DNA from: a virus
Taxonomy: Duplodnaviria > Heunggongvirae > Uroviricota > Caudoviricetes
Length of the DNA: 4,256 nt
Strand: one strand, 5' to 3'
Virus record (IMG/VR): IMGVR_UViG_2537561928_000019
The notes beneath the pieces were generated by a model. The model ran no database searches and was not told the origin of the DNA. It saw only the letters and a program-made list of their open reading frames with translations. Both the position numbers and the translations under genes were made by a program. Shown here one piece after another: positions 1 through 4,256 of this stretch (the first letter of the stretch is position 1; the number at the start of each line of letters is the position of its first letter).

Positions 1-67
1 CTTCGCCTTCGGCAAGACCTTCGAAGTATTCTTCGTAAGCCTTTTCCATGATTGCGTCGAAATCCAT
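1..67 (-). CDS. 5' end of a small prophage early-left-operon protein (possibly YdfB-like); the rest lies beyond the left window edge
   Basis: Minus-strand ATG at 67..65 preceded by an AGGTGA Shine-Dalgarno-like motif (rc of 72-77). Open frame to the window edge; visible N-terminus is MDFDAIMEKAYEEYFEGLAEGE. The start lies 1 nt after the stop of the upstream ORF (TGAtATG), an operon-type junction. Not in the ORF track because it has no stop inside the window. Confidence 0.45.
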   Translation of the reverse strand, partial: MDFDAIMEKAYEEYFEGLAEGE

Positions 68-400: not shown

Positions 401-443
401 AGTTTAATAAACATTAAACTTAAGTCAAGTAAAAACTAAACCG
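401..443 (-). promoter_or_regulatory. OL-like operator/promoter element for the leftward early operon
   Basis: Perfect 8-4-8 palindrome AGTTTAAT-aaac-ATTAAACT at 401-420. On the minus strand, TTGACT (428..423), a 16-nt spacer and TAAACT (406..401) form a sigma70-like promoter reading toward ydfA. The segment 402-420 is 17/19 identical to 1427-1445, and AACTAAACCG at 434-443 recurs as CACTAAACCG at 1457-1466. Confidence 0.5.
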
Positions 444-512: not shown

Positions 513-791
513 TTAGGGAAACTGGCGTCTTGCGTGGATCACGTTTACTACTTCAACGCTTGATGTTGTTACGCGGTATAGAATTATATAGTTAGGGTGG
601 GCTACAATCTCACGCAAGCCAGGTACTCTGTCGCTTGGTGGGTATAAATACGGATGTTCGGATAACGGCAGCACACAACCCCTTAATCGCTGCCATAAGC
701 GTTCAGCCGCATCTATGTCGAAACGAGCAATATAACTAGTTATATCATCTAGGTCGGTATCTGCGCTTTCAAGCCATAACACGGGTAACAT
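513..791 (-). CDS. parE2: ParE-family (RelE/ParE superfamily) type II toxin, 92 aa
   Basis: Within track ORF 513..887(-); start placed at the internal ATG 791..789, 1 nt after the stop of the upstream antitoxin (TAAtATG). Protein MLPVLWLESADTDLDDITSYIARFDIDAAERLWQRLRGCVLPLSEHPYLYPPSDRVPGLREIVAHPNYIILYRVTTSSVEVVNVIHARRQFP has the typical ParE layout and a C-terminal ...YRV...V.VV.V.H.RR motif. I cannot tell paralog 1 from paralog 2 by eye. Confidence 0.75.
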   Translation of the reverse strand: MLPVLWLESADTDLDDITSYIARFDIDAAERLWQRLRGCVLPLSEHPYLYPPSDRVPGLREIVAHPNYIILYRVTTSSVEVVNVIHARRQFP

Positions 792-792
792 T

Positions 793-984
793 TTACTGCT
801 TGCTCCGTTCCTTGCGCATTTTAGCAAAGCGTTCTGCCATTCTGCGCTCAACTTCGTCATGGGGAATTGCTGGGCGTGGATCTGCAAGGCTCGTTGCTAC
901 TTTTGCACGCAGCCATTCGTTGTAACTGTTTTCTTGTTCAATGGTTTCAAATTCAGAAACCATTGGTGAAAGGGCTCTATTCAT
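793..984 (-). CDS. paaA2: PaaA2-type antitoxin (small, likely disordered), 63 aa, partner of ParE
   Basis: Within track ORF 793..1038(-); start at Met 984..982 has a GGAGG SD 4 nt upstream (rc of 989-993). Protein MNRALSPMVSEFETIEQENSYNEWLRAKVATSLADPRPAIPHDEVERRMAERFAKMRKERSKQ matches my recollection of the E. coli O157 PaaA2 antitoxin. Lies between the regulator and the toxin in one operon. Confidence 0.7.
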   Translation of the reverse strand: MNRALSPMVSEFETIEQENSYNEWLRAKVATSLADPRPAIPHDEVERRMAERFAKMRKERSKQ

Positions 985-1004: not shown

Positions 1005-1376
1005 TCAGGCGCGGCGGCATTTTTGCGCCGCAATCCATCTCGCTATGAGATCTTCCATTGATTCTTTTTTCTGCTTTAACTCGCTGATTATCTGGCGTTG
1101 CTCATCCTCAGGGAAGGCTGAAAAAATCTGCAATAATTCCAGTTGATTAGACGTTAACCCTGCATGTGGTGGAGAAACCTCCGGTTGTTCTGCGTATTCC
1201 GCATCCAGATACCCTTCCGGCATCCCGTATGTTTGCTCTATTCTTCTGGCAGCCTTTTCTCCAAACGAGGCTCTCCCACTCATTAGTTGAGATAGGTAGC
1301 TCTTCTCTTTGGGTGGCAGAGTTTTATCTTTAAACCACTCCTTGAGACGTAAACGGCGAATTTCTTTTTTTTGCAT
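1005..1376 (-). CDS. paaR2: PaaR2-type CI-like HTH transcriptional regulator, 123 aa (first gene of the three-component TA operon; occupies the prophage repressor position)
   Basis: Within track ORF 1005..1481(-); start placed at Met 1376 (MQKKEIRRLRLKEWFKDKTLPPKEKSYLSQLMSGRASFGEKAARRIEQTYGMPEGYLDAE...). The N-terminal HTH-like segment (SYLSQLMSGRASFGEKAARRIEQTYGMPEGYL) resembles the YdaS-like protein encoded divergently. No SD before ATG 1376, but a GATAAT -10 lies 6 nt upstream, suggesting a leaderless transcript. The stop is 20 nt before the paaA2 start. Confidence 0.7.
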   Translation of the reverse strand: MQKKEIRRLRLKEWFKDKTLPPKEKSYLSQLMSGRASFGEKAARRIEQTYGMPEGYLDAEYAEQPEVSPPHAGLTSNQLELLQIFSAFPEDEQRQIISELKQKKESMEDLIARWIAAQKCRRA

Positions 1377-1474
1377 GTGGTAATTATCTTTAGTAATCAC
1401 TAAACAAGCAAATACTTGACTTAATGGTTTATTAAACACTAAACTCTCAAAAAAAACACTAAACCGAGGAAGGT
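1377..1474. promoter_or_regulatory. Divergent promoter/operator region (OR-like) between paaR2 and the ydaS-like gene
   Basis: Palindrome TTTAGT-aatc-ACTAAA at 1389-1404. Three ACTAAAC-containing elements at 1398-1405, 1438-1444 and 1459-1465. Rightward candidate promoter: TTGACT 1416-1421, 18-nt spacer, TAAACT 1440-1445, then GAGGA SD 1466-1470 before ATG 1475. Leftward candidate promoter (minus strand): -35 TTGCTT (rc of 1406-1411), 17-nt spacer containing the palindrome, -10 GATAAT (rc of 1383-1388). Confidence 0.6.
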
Positions 1475-1777
1475 ATGACATTAAAAGAGTTTATTAAATC
1501 ATTGAGGGTTGGTGATGCTAAGAAATTCGCAGCCAGACTTGGTGTATCGCCATCTTACTTATCGCAAATGGCGTCTGGACGAGCAGCTATATCTCCAACA
1601 CGCGCCCTTATGATCGAATCTGCGACGGAAGGCCAAGTAAGTAGGGCGGAGCTACGACCCCATGATTGGGAGCTTATTTGGCCTGAGTATGCGAGCGGCA
1701 TTCGTTTGGGGCAAACACATGTAGTTCATGCTGAAGGTGATTGTAGTGCATGCTTATCTGATGGAGTTGATTCATGA
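1475..1777 (+). CDS. ydaS: YdaS-like Cro-type HTH regulator, 100 aa
   Basis: Track ORF 1475..1777(+). HTH-like segment FAARLGVSPSYLSQMASGRAAISPTRALMIESAT. Divergent from the CI-like regulator, as in cI/cro and racR/ydaS pairs. Stop overlaps the next start (ATGA at 1774-1777). GAGGA SD upstream. Confidence 0.7.
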   Translation: MTLKEFIKSLRVGDAKKFAARLGVSPSYLSQMASGRAAISPTRALMIESATEGQVSRAELRPHDWELIWPEYASGIRLGQTHVVHAEGDCSACLSDGVDS

Positions 1778-2199
1778 AAATCAAGCATGAACACATCCGC
1801 ATGGCGATGAATGCCTGGGCGCATCCGGACGGTGAAAAAGTTCCGGCTGCGAAAATTACCAAAGCGTATTTCGAGCTGGGAATGACGTTCCCGGAACTGT
1901 ATAACGACAGCCATCCGGAAGCCCTGGCTCGCAATACTCAGAAAATTTTCCGCTGGGTGGAGAAAGACACCCCTGATGCGGTTAAAAAAATTCAGGCGTT
2001 GTTACCAGCTATCGAAAAGGCAATGCCACCTCTGCTGGTGGCCCGAATGCGCAGCCACAGTTCAGCCTATTTTCGGGAGCTGGTGGAGACACGGGAGCGA
2101 CTGGTGAGAGACGCTGATGATTTTGTCGCAGTGGCAATCGCCGGTTTCAATCAGATGAACCGCGGTGGCCCGGCAGGAAATGCTGTGGCAGTGCATTGA
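1774..2199 (+). CDS. ydaT: YdaT-like protein (CII-like regulator of Rac/CP-933P-type prophages), 141 aa
   Basis: Track ORF 1774..2199(+). N-terminus MKIKHEHI... and size match my recollection of the YdaT family. Translationally coupled to the ydaS-like gene through the ATGA overlap. Confidence 0.75.
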   Translation: MKIKHEHIRMAMNAWAHPDGEKVPAAKITKAYFELGMTFPELYNDSHPEALARNTQKIFRWVEKDTPDAVKKIQALLPAIEKAMPPLLVARMRSHSSAYFRELVETRERLVRDADDFVAVAIAGFNQMNRGGPAGNAVAVH

Positions 2200-2270: not shown

Positions 2271-3341
2271 ATGGCTAACGCCTGGCTCAGATTATGGCAT
2301 GACATGCCAAATGACCCTAAGTGGCGAACAATTGCCAGGGTGTCAGGGCAGCCAATTGCAACAGTGATGGCAGTGTATATCCACCTCCTGGTGAGCGCGT
2401 CACGAAATGTCACGCGAGGTCACATTGATGTCACGACAGAAGATTTGGCAAGTGCGCTCGACGTGACAGAAGAGGTAATTGATTCAATTTTGCAGACGAT
2501 GCAGGGGCGGGTACTTGACGGTGATTTAATCACTGGATGGGAAAAACGCCAGGTGCTGAAAGAGGACAACGGCAATATTTCGCAAACCGCAAAATCTCCT
2601 GCAGAGCGCAAGAGGGCGCAGCGAGAGAGGGAAAGAAAGCGGGAACAAAATGGCAATTGTCACGGCGCGTCACGAAATGTCACGCACATGTCACGACGAG
2701 TCACGACAGATAAAGATACAGATAAAGATACAGATCAAGAAGATCAAAACACTATGGTCCATGGCGTAAAAAACGCCACGAACCAGGCAGGGGATGTTCA
2801 GACCGTCAATCCTGGTCAGCCAGCAGGCACGACACCGGAAGCCGATTCAGCGTATGCGCTGAAAGCCGATTCGGGCGCTGTGCAGCAGGTGATGACCGCA
2901 AGGCCGGAGCAATCACACCAACTGCAGCAGCCTGAAGCCGATTCCGCCATTCAGCGGGAAGCCGATCGGGTAGTCCCGGAAAACACCGGGCAGCCTGTGA
3001 GACGAGTGGATTATCCGGATGTGTTCGAACAGGTCTGGCGGGAATACCCGCTGCGTGCTGGGGCAAACCCGAAGAAATCCGCTTTCAGTGCCTGGAAGGC
3101 CAGATTACGCGAGGGGGTGTCACCAGAGGCCATGCTGGATGGCGTGAGGCGTTACGCAAGATACCTTGCGGCTACCGGGAAAACGGGAACGGAATTTGTT
3201 CAGCGAGCGACGACGTTTTTTGGACCGGACCGGAATTTTGAAAACCCCTGGCTGCTCCCGGTAAGCGGCACGAACAACCAGCGTTGTGTGAATCATATTT
3301 CTGAACCGGATACCGAAATTCCACCGGGCTTCAGGGGGTAA
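2271..3341 (+). CDS. Putative phage replication initiation protein (in the YdaU / lambda-O position) with a low-complexity central linker and embedded iterons
   Basis: Track ORF 2265..3341(+). I prefer ATG 2271 (MANAWLRLWHDMPNDPKWR...) with GAGGTG 3 nt upstream; GTG 2265 is the alternative. The C-terminal segment VFEQVWREYPLRAGANPKKSAFSAWKARL... resembles a motif I recall from phage replication proteins. The central part is Asp/Lys/Thr-rich low complexity encoded by DNA repeats. Position after the cro/cII analogs matches lambdoid O-type genes. Confidence 0.65.
   Translation: MANAWLRLWHDMPNDPKWRTIARVSGQPIATVMAVYIHLLVSASRNVTRGHIDVTTEDLASALDVTEEVIDSILQTMQGRVLDGDLITGWEKRQVLKEDNGNISQTAKSPAERKRAQRERERKREQNGNCHGASRNVTHMSRRVTTDKDTDKDTDQEDQNTMVHGVKNATNQAGDVQTVNPGQPAGTTPEADSAYALKADSGAVQQVMTARPEQSHQLQQPEADSAIQREADRVVPENTGQPVRRVDYPDVFEQVWREYPLRAGANPKKSAFSAWKARLREGVSPEAMLDGVRRYARYLAATGKTGTEFVQRATTFFGPDRNFENPWLLPVSGTNNQRCVNHISEPDTEIPPGFRG
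2399..2435 (+). repeat. Iteron-like direct repeat cluster 1 (4 copies of GTCACR at 10-11 bp phasing)
   Basis: GTCACG at 2399 and 2409, GTCACA at 2419, GTCACG at 2430. The 21-mer GCGCGTCACGAAATGTCACGC at 2396-2416 recurs exactly at 2666-2686. Confidence 0.5.
2659..2705 (+). repeat. Iteron-like direct repeat cluster 2 (5 copies of GTCACG at 10-11 bp phasing); candidate origin core
   Basis: GTCACG at 2659, 2669, 2679, 2690 and 2700, one copy per helical turn, immediately followed by an AT-rich tandem repeat. Located inside the initiator gene, as lambda ori is inside O. Confidence 0.55.
2707..2750 (+). repeat. AT-rich tandem repeat (CAGATAAAGATA x2, then degenerate CAGATCAAGAAGATCAA); possible DNA-unwinding element
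   Basis: Exact 12-bp tandem duplication at 2707-2718 and 2719-2730, followed by degenerate copies. Encodes DKDTDKDTDQEDQ in the initiator. Directly 3' of iteron cluster 2. Confidence 0.45.
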
Positions 3342-3381: not shown

Positions 3382-3804
3382 GTGGCAAAAGTTTTTACAC
3401 AAGAAGAGCGGGAAAAAATTAAAGGGCAGGTTGTTGAACTCGTACGCCGGAGTGGGCGTGAGACGTTACGGCAACTGGAAGTCAAGACAGGTGCGACAAG
3501 ATATCTGATGAGCGTTCTCGCAAGAGAGCTGGTTGCCAGCGGCGATGTATACAACTCTGGTTACGGGTTATTCCCGTCTGAACAGGCGCGTAAGGACTGG
3601 CAAAATGCCCGTAAAAAGCTCTCAAGGGCAAAGCTGAAGGAACCATCTGCGGTTGATCCGGACCTTATCTGGTCATTACCTGACGGAGAAATACGTCGTT
3701 ACGACAGGCGTCATAATATGATTTGTACTGAGTGTCGTAAAAGCGAAGTTATGCAGCGCATATTGTCGTTTTATCAGGGGGATGTCCGGTATTTATTGAA
3801 GTGA
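3382..3804 (+). CDS. Hypothetical protein, 140 aa, function unknown
   Basis: Track ORF 3382..3804(+). GTG start with AGGAGG SD at 3372-3377; an in-frame stop 18 nt upstream limits any extension. Starts 40 nt after the initiator stop, so probably the same operon. The protein is basic with a possible HTH-like N-terminal segment (RETLRQLEVKTGATRYLMSVLARELV) and a C-terminal CTECRK motif. I do not recognise the family. Confidence 0.6.
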   Translation: MAKVFTQEEREKIKGQVVELVRRSGRETLRQLEVKTGATRYLMSVLARELVASGDVYNSGYGLFPSEQARKDWQNARKKLSRAKLKEPSAVDPDLIWSLPDGEIRRYDRRHNMICTECRKSEVMQRILSFYQGDVRYLLK

Positions 3805-3872
3805 CGAGATTAAAGTGCATTAGTTCAGATGCAAATTGACATTTTGTGGCACAGGGTAGAGCTAGCGTGGTT

Positions 3873-3896
3873 GTCCGCTTTGTGCCAAGAGCGGAC
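3873..3896. terminator. Candidate stem-loop between convergent genes (weak intrinsic terminator candidate)
   Basis: GTCCGCT (3873-3879) pairs with AGCGGAC (3890-3896) around a 10-nt loop, followed by TTTG. The U-tract is short, so this is weak. Confidence 0.25.
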
Positions 3897-3933
3897 TTTG
3901 CAAAATGGGGGTTATTTCAATCAAAACGTAACG

Positions 3934-4254
3934 TCACAACCAGCCGACGCTCTCTCGCCATTTATAATTAGTAACTTTATCATTTTCGCTTATTTTTTTA
4001 GATATAGAGCGCGGCTCTCTTCCTAGATACTCAGATATTTCTATCGGGGACAAATCAAAATCAACAAGCATGACTCTAAGTTTTTCCATTTCCTTTAAAG
4101 TCCAAGGCTTGCCATAATTTTCATAAAGAGATACCTTATGCTCCCTGATAGTTCGCTTTCTCTGAGTTTCACTTTCCCTCTGAAAAATCTCGCTTTTAAA
4201 TTGTGAACGGAACTCTTTACAGAAGTTGTTATCAGTTTTTTTGTTATATAGATT
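3934..4254 (-). CDS. 3' part of a minus-strand gene running off the right edge; hypothetical protein with a Myb/SANT-like HTH motif, encoded in low-GC DNA
   Basis: Manual translation of the reverse strand gives a 107-codon open frame from the window edge to TGA at 3936..3934: ...NLYNKKTDNNFCKEFRSQFKSEIFQRESETQRKRTIREHKVSLYENYGKPWTLKEMEKLRVMLVDFDLSPIEISEYLGREPRSISKKISENDKVTNYKWRESVGWL. Absent from the ORF track because the start is outside the window. The segment KPWTLKEMEKL...ISEYLGREPRSISKKI resembles a Myb/SANT-type helix-turn-helix. The region is clearly more AT-rich than the rest of the window. Confidence 0.5.
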   Translation of the reverse strand, partial: NLYNKKTDNNFCKEFRSQFKSEIFQRESETQRKRTIREHKVSLYENYGKPWTLKEMEKLRVMLVDFDLSPIEISEYLGREPRSISKKISENDKVTNYKWRESVGWL

Positions 4255-4256
4255 GC

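Follow-up and report, generated by a model that had tools for sequence, protein, structure and literature searches.

A caudovirus sequence that very probably carries an allele of the CP-933P-type immunity region, with a toxin-antitoxin pair behind the repressor gene

Positions 1005-2199 of a 4,256-nucleotide caudovirus sequence (IMG/VR record IMGVR_UViG_2537561928_000019; the whole stretch is referred to here as the window), together with an operator cluster to their left, are very probably an allele of the CP-933P/Sp12-type lambdoid immunity region, which is the best explanation of the locus as a whole. The immunity switch is real but ordinary, as a near-identical copy has already been characterised in the cryptic prophage CP-933P/Sp12 of E. 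coli O157:H7. In that work PaaR2, YdaS and YdaT behave as CI, Cro and CII, respectively (Jurenas et al. 2021, PMC8630535; Prolic-Kalinsek et al. 2023, PMC9986795). The DNase I footprints of PaaR2 and YdaS in CP-933P overlap, the PR, PRM and PL promoters are cross-repressed, and expression is bistable, a behaviour that is lost on mutating either gene (PMC8630535). YdaT is a POU-type tetramer and does not have the CII fold (PMC9986795). The PaaR2/YdaS/YdaT switch was known beforehand and the window itself adds little as a finding; the locus is a textbook-style case of a toxin-antitoxin (TA) pair inside a prophage lysis/lysogeny switch, and genetic, biochemical and structural work has already taken it apart. 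An initial annotation, made from the sequence, had described this stretch as an immunity core whose two helix-turn-helix (HTH) proteins share operators, and had predicted that the repressor would be hard to delete. The immunity core and the shared operators hold up; the deletion prediction is unsupported and, in the plasmid setting of the published test, contradicted.

The genes, protein identities, operators, promoters and YdaT site described below are all present in the window sequence, and nothing was found there that contradicts a CP-933P-type reading. Positions 235-2188 are 95.7% identical at the DNA level to O157:H7 ATCC 35150. The gene set, order and orientation are the same as in CP-933P/Sp12, with paaR2-paaA2-parE2 facing ydaS-ydaT. 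PaaA2 and ParE2 are identical between the two loci, while PaaR2 matches at 121 of 123 residues, YdaS at 99 of 100 and YdaT at 120 of 141 (85%). Identity extends to each of the four inverted repeats, to the hexamers of PR, PRM and PL and to the OM site of YdaT. Within the 98-bp intergenic region (97 bp in O157:H7) there are two differences, T1447G and one extra A, both placed between IR3 and IR4. Elsewhere, residues 66-67 of the PaaR2 linker are EV in the window and GG in CP-933P/Sp12, and YdaS residue 37, just past the recognition helix, is alanine in place of threonine. With a spacer of 98 instead of 97 bp, A37 in YdaS and a YdaT that is 85% identical, the quantitative behaviour of this allele could differ from that of the characterised one. 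The homology to O157:H7 stops at window position 2188; beyond it the window has a 356-aa replisome organiser, whereas O157:H7 has an HTH_36 protein and a DnaC-like loader.

The gene map bears out the arrangement first proposed, a CI-like regulator that heads a TA operon opposite Cro- and CII-like genes, as do the protein identities and the published CP-933P locus. The coordinates originally given, 1005-2199 for the whole core and 1377-1474 for the intergenic region, are exact. On the minus strand, paaR2 (1005-1376, 123 aa, beginning MQKKE) encodes the CI-like repressor, and its residues 1-65 are identical to PDB 7nkv/8c3k. Directly downstream lie paaA2 (793-984, minus strand) and parE2 (513-791, minus strand), separated from each other by 1 base. 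PaaA2 (63 aa) is an antitoxin without a DNA-binding domain (Pfam PaaA2, 1e-19), with residues 2-63 identical to PDB 3zbe/5cw7. ParE2 (92 aa) is a ParE-family toxin (Pfam ParE_toxin, 1.9e-16) identical at 92 of 92 residues to PDB 5cw7_B. Both proteins are thereby identical to chains of the solved complex 5cw7, and the ParE-fold toxin gene follows that of its small cognate antitoxin at once in one operon, the arrangement of ParE/ParD-like type II TA systems.

The plus strand carries ydaS (1475-1777) and ydaT (1774-2199), which overlap at the ydaS stop and ydaT start (1774-1777). YdaS (100 aa) is a Cro-like HTH regulator (Pfam YdaS_toxin, 3.9e-12; HTH_3, 1.4e-6) and matches PDB 8c7k, 'Phage antirepressor protein Cro', at 99 of 100 residues, with A37 for T37 as the sole change; its gene is preceded by a Shine-Dalgarno sequence on the same strand (GAGGAAGG, 1466-1473). 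YdaT (141 aa) is a CII-like tetrameric POU-type regulator (Pfam YdaT_toxin, 1.1e-9), matched over its full length by PDB 3c4r (3.2e-89) and PDB 8bt1 (1.8e-80). The labels 'toxin YdaS/YdaT' in Pfam and RefSeq are misleading, and Cro-like and CII-like fit instead; in the same way CI-like fits PaaR2 better than its label 'hypothetical protein'.

PaaR2 consists of an N-terminal HTH domain with a predicted recognition helix at residues 22-33, a disordered linker (64-71) and a C-terminal helical domain (76-122). In an AF2 model (mean pLDDT 84.6) the C-terminus is predicted as two helices, and the model matches 8c3k, 'PaaR2 N-terminal domain', with an rmsd of 0.8 Å. The PDB matches of the N-domain carry the name 'Phage repressor protein CI'. 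Judged by this fold match and by the published footprints, PaaR2 has the N-terminal HTH domain of lambda CI/LexA-type repressors, acting on operators between divergent promoters. The 123-aa protein gave no Pfam match, and the S24 autopeptidase domain that is typical of lambda CI and LexA was not found in it; without that domain PaaR2 is not cleavable in the SOS response. A longer 158-aa paaR2 reading frame that reaches 1481 was rejected, as N-terminal sequencing of the published protein established the start MQKKE (PMC8630535), which corresponds to the ATG at 1376. The published mass of PaaR2-His, 15,081 Da, fitted none of the tags that we guessed.

Promoters and operators were located in the 98-bp paaR2-ydaS intergenic region (1377-1474) and to the left of the TA genes. 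A PR-type promoter on the plus strand (1416-1445, TTGACT-18 nt-TAAACT) was found by promoter scan, is identical to that of O157:H7 and drives ydaS-ydaT. On the minus strand a PRM-type promoter is predicted at 1383-1411, with the -35 element TTGCTT (1411-1406), a 17-nt spacer that forms the IR1 core and the -10 element GATAAT (1388-1383). This promoter was missed by the consensus scan because its -35 element matches at only 3 of 6 positions. The -10 element lies 6 nt upstream of the paaR2 ATG, which has no Shine-Dalgarno sequence ahead of it. The PRM start point would be A1376, the first base of that ATG, giving a leaderless mRNA; the O157:H7 sequence is identical here, and 5' RACE placed the start of the paaR2 transcript at the start codon (PMC8630535).

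The published region contains four equally spaced 18-bp inverted repeats, with an approximate half-site consensus of GTTTAGTAA and degenerate left halves in IR2 and IR4 (PMC8630535). The same array is found in the window, as four inverted repeats of about 18 bp that share this half-site and overlap PR and PRM, accompanied by an OL/PL cluster. IR1 (1388-1405, CTTTAGTAATCACTAAAC) lies within the spacer of PRM and is palindromic over 18 bp, with 2 mismatches to GTTTAGTAATTACTAAAC. IR2, placed at 1408-1425 from the spacing of about 20 bp, has a conserved right half alone and overlaps the back-to-back -35 elements; AAGCAAATACTTGAC is the most conserved block among 46 distinct switch regions. IR3 (1427-1444, GTTTATTAAACACTAAAC) overlaps the -10 element of PR and was identified by both its repeat and its palindrome matches. 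In IR4 (1447-1464) the right half ACACTAAAC is conserved, and the run of A at 1449-1456 exceeds that of O157:H7 by one base. The motif ACTAAAC occurs in 4 copies against 0.52 expected, a count reached in 0 of 200 shuffles, and the 18-bp palindrome consensus has 2 matches against 0.01 expected.

The second cluster, at 398-441, is OL-like and consists of the repeats AATAAACATTAAAC (406-419), AGTAAAAACTAAAC (428-441) and TTTAGTTTAAT (398-408). These belong to one repeat family with the three OR copies, with ACTAAAC at 435-441; operators OL1-3 have been described upstream of the paaR2 operon (PMC8630535). A PL-type promoter here (401-428, minus strand, TTGACT-16 nt-TAAACT) was likewise found by promoter scan, reads leftward to a DUF1391 gene and has the same hexamers as PR, as published for PL933P (PMC8630535). 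The primary YdaT site, OM (TTGATTCATGAAAATCAA, 1767-1784), spans the ydaS stop/ydaT start overlap. It is an exact match to TTGATTN6AATCAA, the site defined by footprinting (PMC9986795), and 0.04 such matches are expected by chance.

Binding, repression, bistability and leaderless translation are assumed for the window allele from the almost identical published locus. On that basis PaaR2 would take the role of lambda CI, translated from a leaderless mRNA made at the weak PRM-type promoter, and paaR2 would be co-transcribed with the PaaA2-ParE2 addiction pair, sited where lambda has rexAB. YdaS would take the role of Cro and be expressed together with YdaT from the strong divergent PR-type promoter. 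Both PaaR2 and YdaS would bind the four ~18-bp inverted repeats, ~20 bp apart, that extend across the back-to-back promoters, as well as the second operator cluster at the PL-type promoter ~1 kb left of this array. Each would repress the promoter of the other, making the locus bistable. YdaT, in the role of CII, would act at TTGATTN6AATCAA and activate a PRE-type promoter that reads leftward into the paaR2 operon. The TA pair would be transcribed in both states and stabilise the region, and would not form a second lock on the repressor.

The two HTH proteins had been noted to contain similar recognition-helix-like segments and were suggested to use the same operators. Both peptides are present: SYLSQLMSGRA corresponds to PaaR2 residues 26-36 and SPSYLSQMASGRA to YdaS residues 25-37. 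PaaR2 and YdaS are 37% identical over 46 aa by BLASTP (pairwise E = 8e-5). Comparison by hhalign of a PaaR-type profile (58 sequences) with a YdaS-type profile (46 sequences) gave a probability of 94% (E = 1e-7, 48% identity over 25 columns), in an alignment that covers the shared helix and the next one. The SYLSQ..SG helix is kept in both partners across 54 loci of Gamma- and Betaproteobacteria, as is the operator layout. S-[YF]-[LI]-S-Q is retained by repressor and YdaS-type partner alike in distant loci, where the switch DNA has been conserved as well, although conservation of the repressor helix is partly forced by the method by which the loci were retrieved. It is likely that these similar S-Y-L-S-Q helices let PaaR2 and YdaS read the same half-sites. 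In phages 434 and P22 the recognition helices of repressor and Cro are almost the same, and the two proteins read common half-sites in a different order of affinity. As in those pairs, the antagonists PaaR2 and YdaS share similar recognition helices and operators; PaaR2 differs in that its HTH is too divergent for Pfam HTH_3 and is joined to an oligomerisation domain that is short and helical. The published overlapping footprints and cross-repression (PMC8630535) place the two proteins on the same operator region, in agreement with the conserved helix and operators. The phrase 'recognition helix' is absent from PMC8630535, and our literature search found no paper on the PaaR2/YdaS structures 7nkv, 8c3k, 8c7k and 8co2.

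The alternative that survives best, which we still consider unlikely, is that paaR2 cannot be deleted, its loss freeing toxic YdaS/YdaT from repression and simultaneously leaving the ParE2 toxin operon unregulated. The published test was performed with the whole immunity region on a plasmid in K-12, as opposed to the native or intact prophage. In that setting, stop codons in paaR2 gave a uniform ydaST-on state by flow cytometry and microscopy, and the mutants were propagated and analysed with no lethality reported (PMC8630535), contrary to the expectation of a repressor that is hard to delete. Release of a second growth-inhibitory module had also been anticipated; however, CP-933P YdaT showed no toxicity, and ydaST-on was already the majority state, in ~90% of cells with the wild-type construct (PMC8630535). 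Nor did the forecast deregulation of the TA pair agree with the data, as the ParE2-dependent SOS signal was equal in both states and in construct-free cells, ParE2 being activated in neither state (PMC8630535). Toxin and antitoxin are co-transcribed, so that a change in promoter activity leaves their ratio unchanged.

An undeletable repressor is favoured by the Rac prophage, where racR is essential and expression of ydaS/ydaT is toxic. Rac YdaT toxicity works through host rcsA (RcsA), and K-12 transposon data show hits at 3.3% of racR sites and 0% of ydaS sites. CP-933P YdaS and YdaT, however, are 26% and 31% identical, respectively, to the Rac proteins (PMC8630535). Prolonged overexpression of YdaS from pBAD does slow growth (PMC8630535). 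All 593 carriers among 5,426 complete E. coli genomes have a full-length paaR2, while only 584 have ydaS at 80% coverage or more and about nine lack it or carry a truncated copy. Replacement of ydaS-ydaT by an IS1203 element was seen in strain E2863, with paaR2-paaA2-parE2 left intact. Physical linkage of paaR2 to an addictive TA pair explains its retention equally well.

We consider it very improbable that PaaR2 is instead the dedicated regulator of a three-component TA system (a 'split antitoxin') with incidental adjacency to ydaS-ydaT. The locus was first described as a three-component module, paaR2-paaA2-parE2, and PaaA2 lacks a DNA-binding domain (PMC8630535). Against this, PaaA2 or ParE2 was present in 0 of 65 distant loci with a PaaR-type N-domain, most of which show a YdaS-type partner in divergent orientation and share the layout of promoters and operators, and about half of the PaaR-type relatives bear an S24 autopeptidase domain like genuine phage CI repressors. 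Least credible of all is that YdaS and YdaT are themselves a TA pair, as the Pfam family names YdaS_toxin and YdaT_toxin imply and as the toxic effect of ectopically expressed Rac homologues might suggest, given that both proteins are regulators that bind DNA, with their structures solved and their sites mapped, that the CP-933P study saw no YdaT toxicity and rejected a TA module (PMC8630535), and that 42 of 53 distant loci having a YdaS partner are without YdaT.

The CP-933P-type module is widespread. It is present in 593 of 5,426 complete E. coli genomes (11%), including O157:H7, ATCC 25922 and ST131, so that the way it behaves bears on how stable prophages are in many strains. The five genes are kept together in 10 different E. 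coli contexts and also occur in the isolated coliphage Evi. A divergent YdaS-type partner accompanies the PaaR-type repressor in 53 of 64 classifiable distant loci. About half of the relatives of PaaR2 have a C-terminal S24 peptidase domain, which PaaR2 is without. S24 (LexA/CI-type) repressors in prophages of Serratia, Yersinia, Proteus, Brenneria and Pandoraea have an N-terminal HTH that is 55-85% identical to that of PaaR2, a divergent YdaS-type partner and the operator/promoter layout of the window; they differ in their C-terminal Peptidase_S24 domain and in having neither PaaA2/ParE2 nor a detectable YdaT-type gene. As distant loci without PaaA2/ParE2 have the YdaS partner and S24 forms, the repressor/Cro pair appears to be older than the TA insertion, which was seen only in the E. 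coli lineage. This relative age, read from sequence comparison, is a modest addition to what was known.

A broader proposal, which we put forward tentatively and do not yet favour, is that PaaR2/YdaS is an allele of an unusually conserved cassette distributed among Enterobacterales, Pasteurellales, Orbales, Burkholderiales and Nitrosomonadales, in which the C-terminal half of the repressor alternates between an S24 peptidase that can be cleaved in the SOS response and a short helical oligomerisation domain. Its operator/promoter core, TTAGTA-N4-CTAAACAAGCAAATACTTGAC-N5-GTTTAGT...TAAACT, is almost unchanged across loci. If this proposal is true, PaaR2 would derive from a classical CI and be blind to SOS, PaaA2-ParE2 would have been inserted late and in the E. 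coli lineage alone, and homoimmunity might exist between prophages whose hosts are very different. No description of such a cassette was found in the literature searched. The comparative data offer a clean case of a domain swap in a phage repressor, in which an S24 peptidase and a short oligomerisation domain replace one another while the rest of the switch stays fixed.

Compared with the Rac locus of K-12 (racR/ydaS-ydaT), the window has the same gene order, the same YdaS and YdaT Pfam families and the same CI/Cro/CII-like logic. Rac differs in having no TA pair behind the repressor, and in that RacR is essential and YdaT toxic via rcsA, neither of which is true of CP-933P under the conditions tested. 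The resemblance to lambda covers the divergent arrangement of repressor and Cro about operators that they share, the absence of a leader on the repressor mRNA, the additional group of operators at PL, activation of a leftward promoter by a CII-type protein, and cargo genes transcribed together with the repressor. Lambda has three operators where the window has four inverted repeats, and the position of rexAB is occupied here by the ParE TA pair. Lambda CI also carries the S24 autopeptidase domain, and PaaR2 does not.

The initial annotation placed an immunity core at 1005-2199, and this was confirmed: its limits coincide exactly with the stops of paaR2 and ydaT. The minus strand carries parE2 (513-791), paaA2 (793-984) and the gene for the CI-like repressor, paaR2 (1005-1376). 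A 98-bp intergenic region (1377-1474) separates these from Cro-like ydaS (1475-1777) and CII-like ydaT (1774-2199) on the plus strand. Next on the plus strand come the gene for a phage replisome organiser of 356 aa (2271-3341) and a DUF977 gene (3382-3804), and beyond them lies an AT-rich end. Downstream of PL, in the left arm, are two minus-strand reading frames: a DUF1391 gene (69-224; Pfam 1e-27) and an ORF that starts at 66 and leaves the contig end (window 1-66). Mechanical ORF calling lengthened paaR2 to 158 aa by taking in 1376-1481 (minus strand), across the whole operator region and into ydaS; database entries that share its 90% cluster, 131, 144 and 150 aa long, probably reflect the same start-site miscall.

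Promoters PR (TTGACT-18-TAAACT, 1416-1445) and PL (TTGACT-16-TAAACT, 428-401) were located, together with a putative PRM (-35 TTGCTT at 1411-1406, -10 GATAAT at 1388-1383) whose +1 falls on the first base (A) of the ATG. Two palindromes occupy 1388-1405 and 1427-1444. Three copies of the repeat belong to the OR cluster and two to the OL cluster at PL, and ACTAAAC was counted four times where 0.5 occurrences are expected. In the CP-933P switch, four 18-bp inverted repeats (IR1-IR4; half-site GTTTAGTAA) lie at equal intervals in the 97-bp intergenic region, on which PaaR2 and YdaS give overlapping DNase I footprints. Both proteins repress PR, PRM and PL, the -35 and -10 elements of PL are identical to those of PR, PRM is activated at low PaaR2 levels, and the PaaR2 mRNA is leaderless, beginning at its ATG (PMC8630535). 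YdaT activates a PRE-type promoter (PMC8630535, PMC9986795) and binds TTGATTN6AATCAA at the ydaS end (PMC9986795); a sequence match to this site was found at 1767-1784. The locus is bistable, and mutating a regulator abolishes the corresponding state; ParE2 is activated in neither state, and the region nonetheless stabilises an unstable plasmid (PMC8630535).

PaaR2 and YdaS had also been suggested to share recognition-helix-like segments and to compete for the same operators. Both peptide segments quoted for this are real. That of PaaR2 falls within a predicted helix (22-33), and that of YdaS lies within the stretch that we take to match helix 3 of Pfam HTH_3. Pairwise BLASTP aligned the two proteins over 46 residues at 37% identity (E = 8e-5); PaaR2 itself fell below HTH_3 detection in the Pfam search. 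PaaR2 homologues were collected, 27 were aligned, and 65 loci were fetched from one-genome-per-species contigs. A divergent YdaS-type gene was present at E <= 1e-3 in 54 of the 65. Both partners in these 54 pairs kept S-[YF]-[LI]-S-Q-[LM]-x-x-G, conservation that for the repressor is partly by construction because the retrieval pattern included its helix; the Cro helix and the DNA lay outside that pattern. PaaR-type and YdaS-type family profiles aligned over the recognition helix and the next helix (hhalign probability 94%, E = 1e-7), and 46 distinct intergenic sequences had a common core, AtTtTGaTTAGtaatnncTAAAcAAGCAAAtACTTGACntttngTTTagtnttnantAAAcT. Conservation of helix and DNA, in agreement with the published footprint overlap, supports the view that PaaR2 and YdaS would act through the same half-sites.

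The only element of the initial annotation that went beyond recall was its prediction that the repressor is hard to delete, and existing evidence speaks against it. The interpretation as a whole was partly supported. A plasmid with the whole immunity region and stop codons in paaR2 has been built; by flow cytometry and microscopy all cells were ydaST-on, a state already occupied by ~9/10 of wild-type cells, and no lethality was reported (PMC8630535). CP-933P YdaT showed no toxicity, and SOS induction did not differ between the two states or from that of cells lacking the construct (PMC8630535). As toxin and antitoxin are on one transcript, loss of the regulator leaves the PaaA2/ParE2 balance unchanged. 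The Rac evidence comes from distant homologues, and Rac YdaT works via host rcsA. The points favouring the prediction carry little weight: growth slows on prolonged YdaS overexpression (PMC8630535), all 593 carriers among 5,426 complete E. coli genomes have a full-length paaR2 (ydaS reaches 80% coverage in 584), and in one case IS1203 removed ydaS-ydaT and spared paaR2-paaA2-parE2. In that genome, E. coli E2863 (NZ_AP018802.1; locus L078, 2501-4238), IS1203 abuts the intergenic region and the replication genes are also gone; the locus is a natural decay product retaining the toxin-antitoxin side. Linkage to an addictive toxin-antitoxin pair accounts equally well for survival of the paaR2 side. 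In an intact prophage, repressor loss would be lethal through ordinary lytic induction.

Across the comparison loci L012-L076, each with the PaaR2 homologue placed at about 3001, the PaaR2-type HTH domain occurred in two architectures, one of ~123 aa whose C-terminus is helical and one of ~210-250 aa that carries an S24 peptidase at its C-terminus. Both had the same switch layout and a YdaS-type partner. Among 64 classifiable relatives, 34 were of 175-252 aa and 30 were short; Pfam Peptidase_S24 was found in four long forms (Yersinia, Proteus, Brenneria and Pandoraea) and in many database matches. Set beside these S24-bearing relatives, PaaR2 is thus, as judged from sequence, the short, SOS-blind form, and its sister forms are predicted to be classical cleavable CI proteins. 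YdaT-type genes were detected beside short forms (11/30) and beside none of the long ones (0/34). Neither PaaA2 nor ParE2 was found in any of the 65 distant loci; therefore, the toxin-antitoxin pair was inserted late, into a repressor/Cro switch that predates it, as already proposed (PMC8630535).

The paaA2-parE2 DNA (window 513-984) was present in 633 complete E. coli genomes versus only 593 for paaR2. The 40 extra genomes, at 80-95% identity, presumably carry paralogous paaA/parE pairs behind another regulator. In E. coli UMNF18 (L004, 3183-3604), ydaT lies in two reading frames (two tblastn segments), with ydaS and paaR2-paaA2-parE2 intact. All five genes are present in the isolated coliphage Evi, where the deposited annotation omits parE2 and an intact ORF (LR597642.1; L001, 6285-6560) is 100% identical to ParE2; therefore, a viable temperate phage carries the toxin-antitoxin-containing immunity region.

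Within the replisome-organiser gene, iteron-like repeats containing GTCACG form two clusters (2399-2437 and 2659-2707), followed by a perfect tandem of two copies of ACAGATAAAGAT (2706-2729). The iteron-like repeats probably mark a replication origin inside the initiator gene, as in lambda O. The right end (3830-4256) has 37-42% GC versus about 50% elsewhere, and the closest E. coli and phage relatives lose their match at about 3780-3900. An ORF there on the minus strand, at least 106 aa long, runs off the contig, has no Pfam match and looks like a moron or cargo gene.

Compared with O157:H7 ATCC 35150, the window is 95.7% identical in DNA over 235-2188; homology stops at 2188, an ordinary mosaic junction beyond which the replication modules of the two prophages differ. 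PaaA2 and ParE2 show complete identity with their counterparts in the solved O157:H7 complex. PaaR2 differs from the ATCC 35150 protein at two linker residues; its residues 1-65 are identical to PDB 7nkv/8c3k, and its AlphaFold model fits 8c3k ('PaaR2 N-terminal domain') with an rmsd of 0.8 A. YdaS matches PDB 8c7k at 99/100 residues; codon 37 (window 1583), immediately after the recognition helix ...MASGR, encodes Ala37 versus Thr37 in the O157:H7 protein used for structures and in the ATCC 35150 protein, and the Ala37 form is very common, its exact sequence occurring on at least 1,000 contigs. YdaT has full-length matches to PDB 3c4r and 8bt1 and is identical to the ATCC 35150 protein at 120/141 positions, with divergence climbing from about position 1900; its exact sequence, EMU64675.1, is on a single contig. 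The intergenic regions differ in just two ways, by T1447G and by an additional A in the 1449-1456 run. This IR3-IR4 spacer (TCAAAAAAAA, 1447-1456) accounts for the 98 bp here, where 12 relatives, O157:H7 and phage Evi among them, have 96-97 bp, and displaces IR4 and the ydaS Shine-Dalgarno by one base with respect to the PR -10. The feature is already known, and the window is a common natural allele (593/5,426 complete E. coli genomes) of the CP-933P-type switch.
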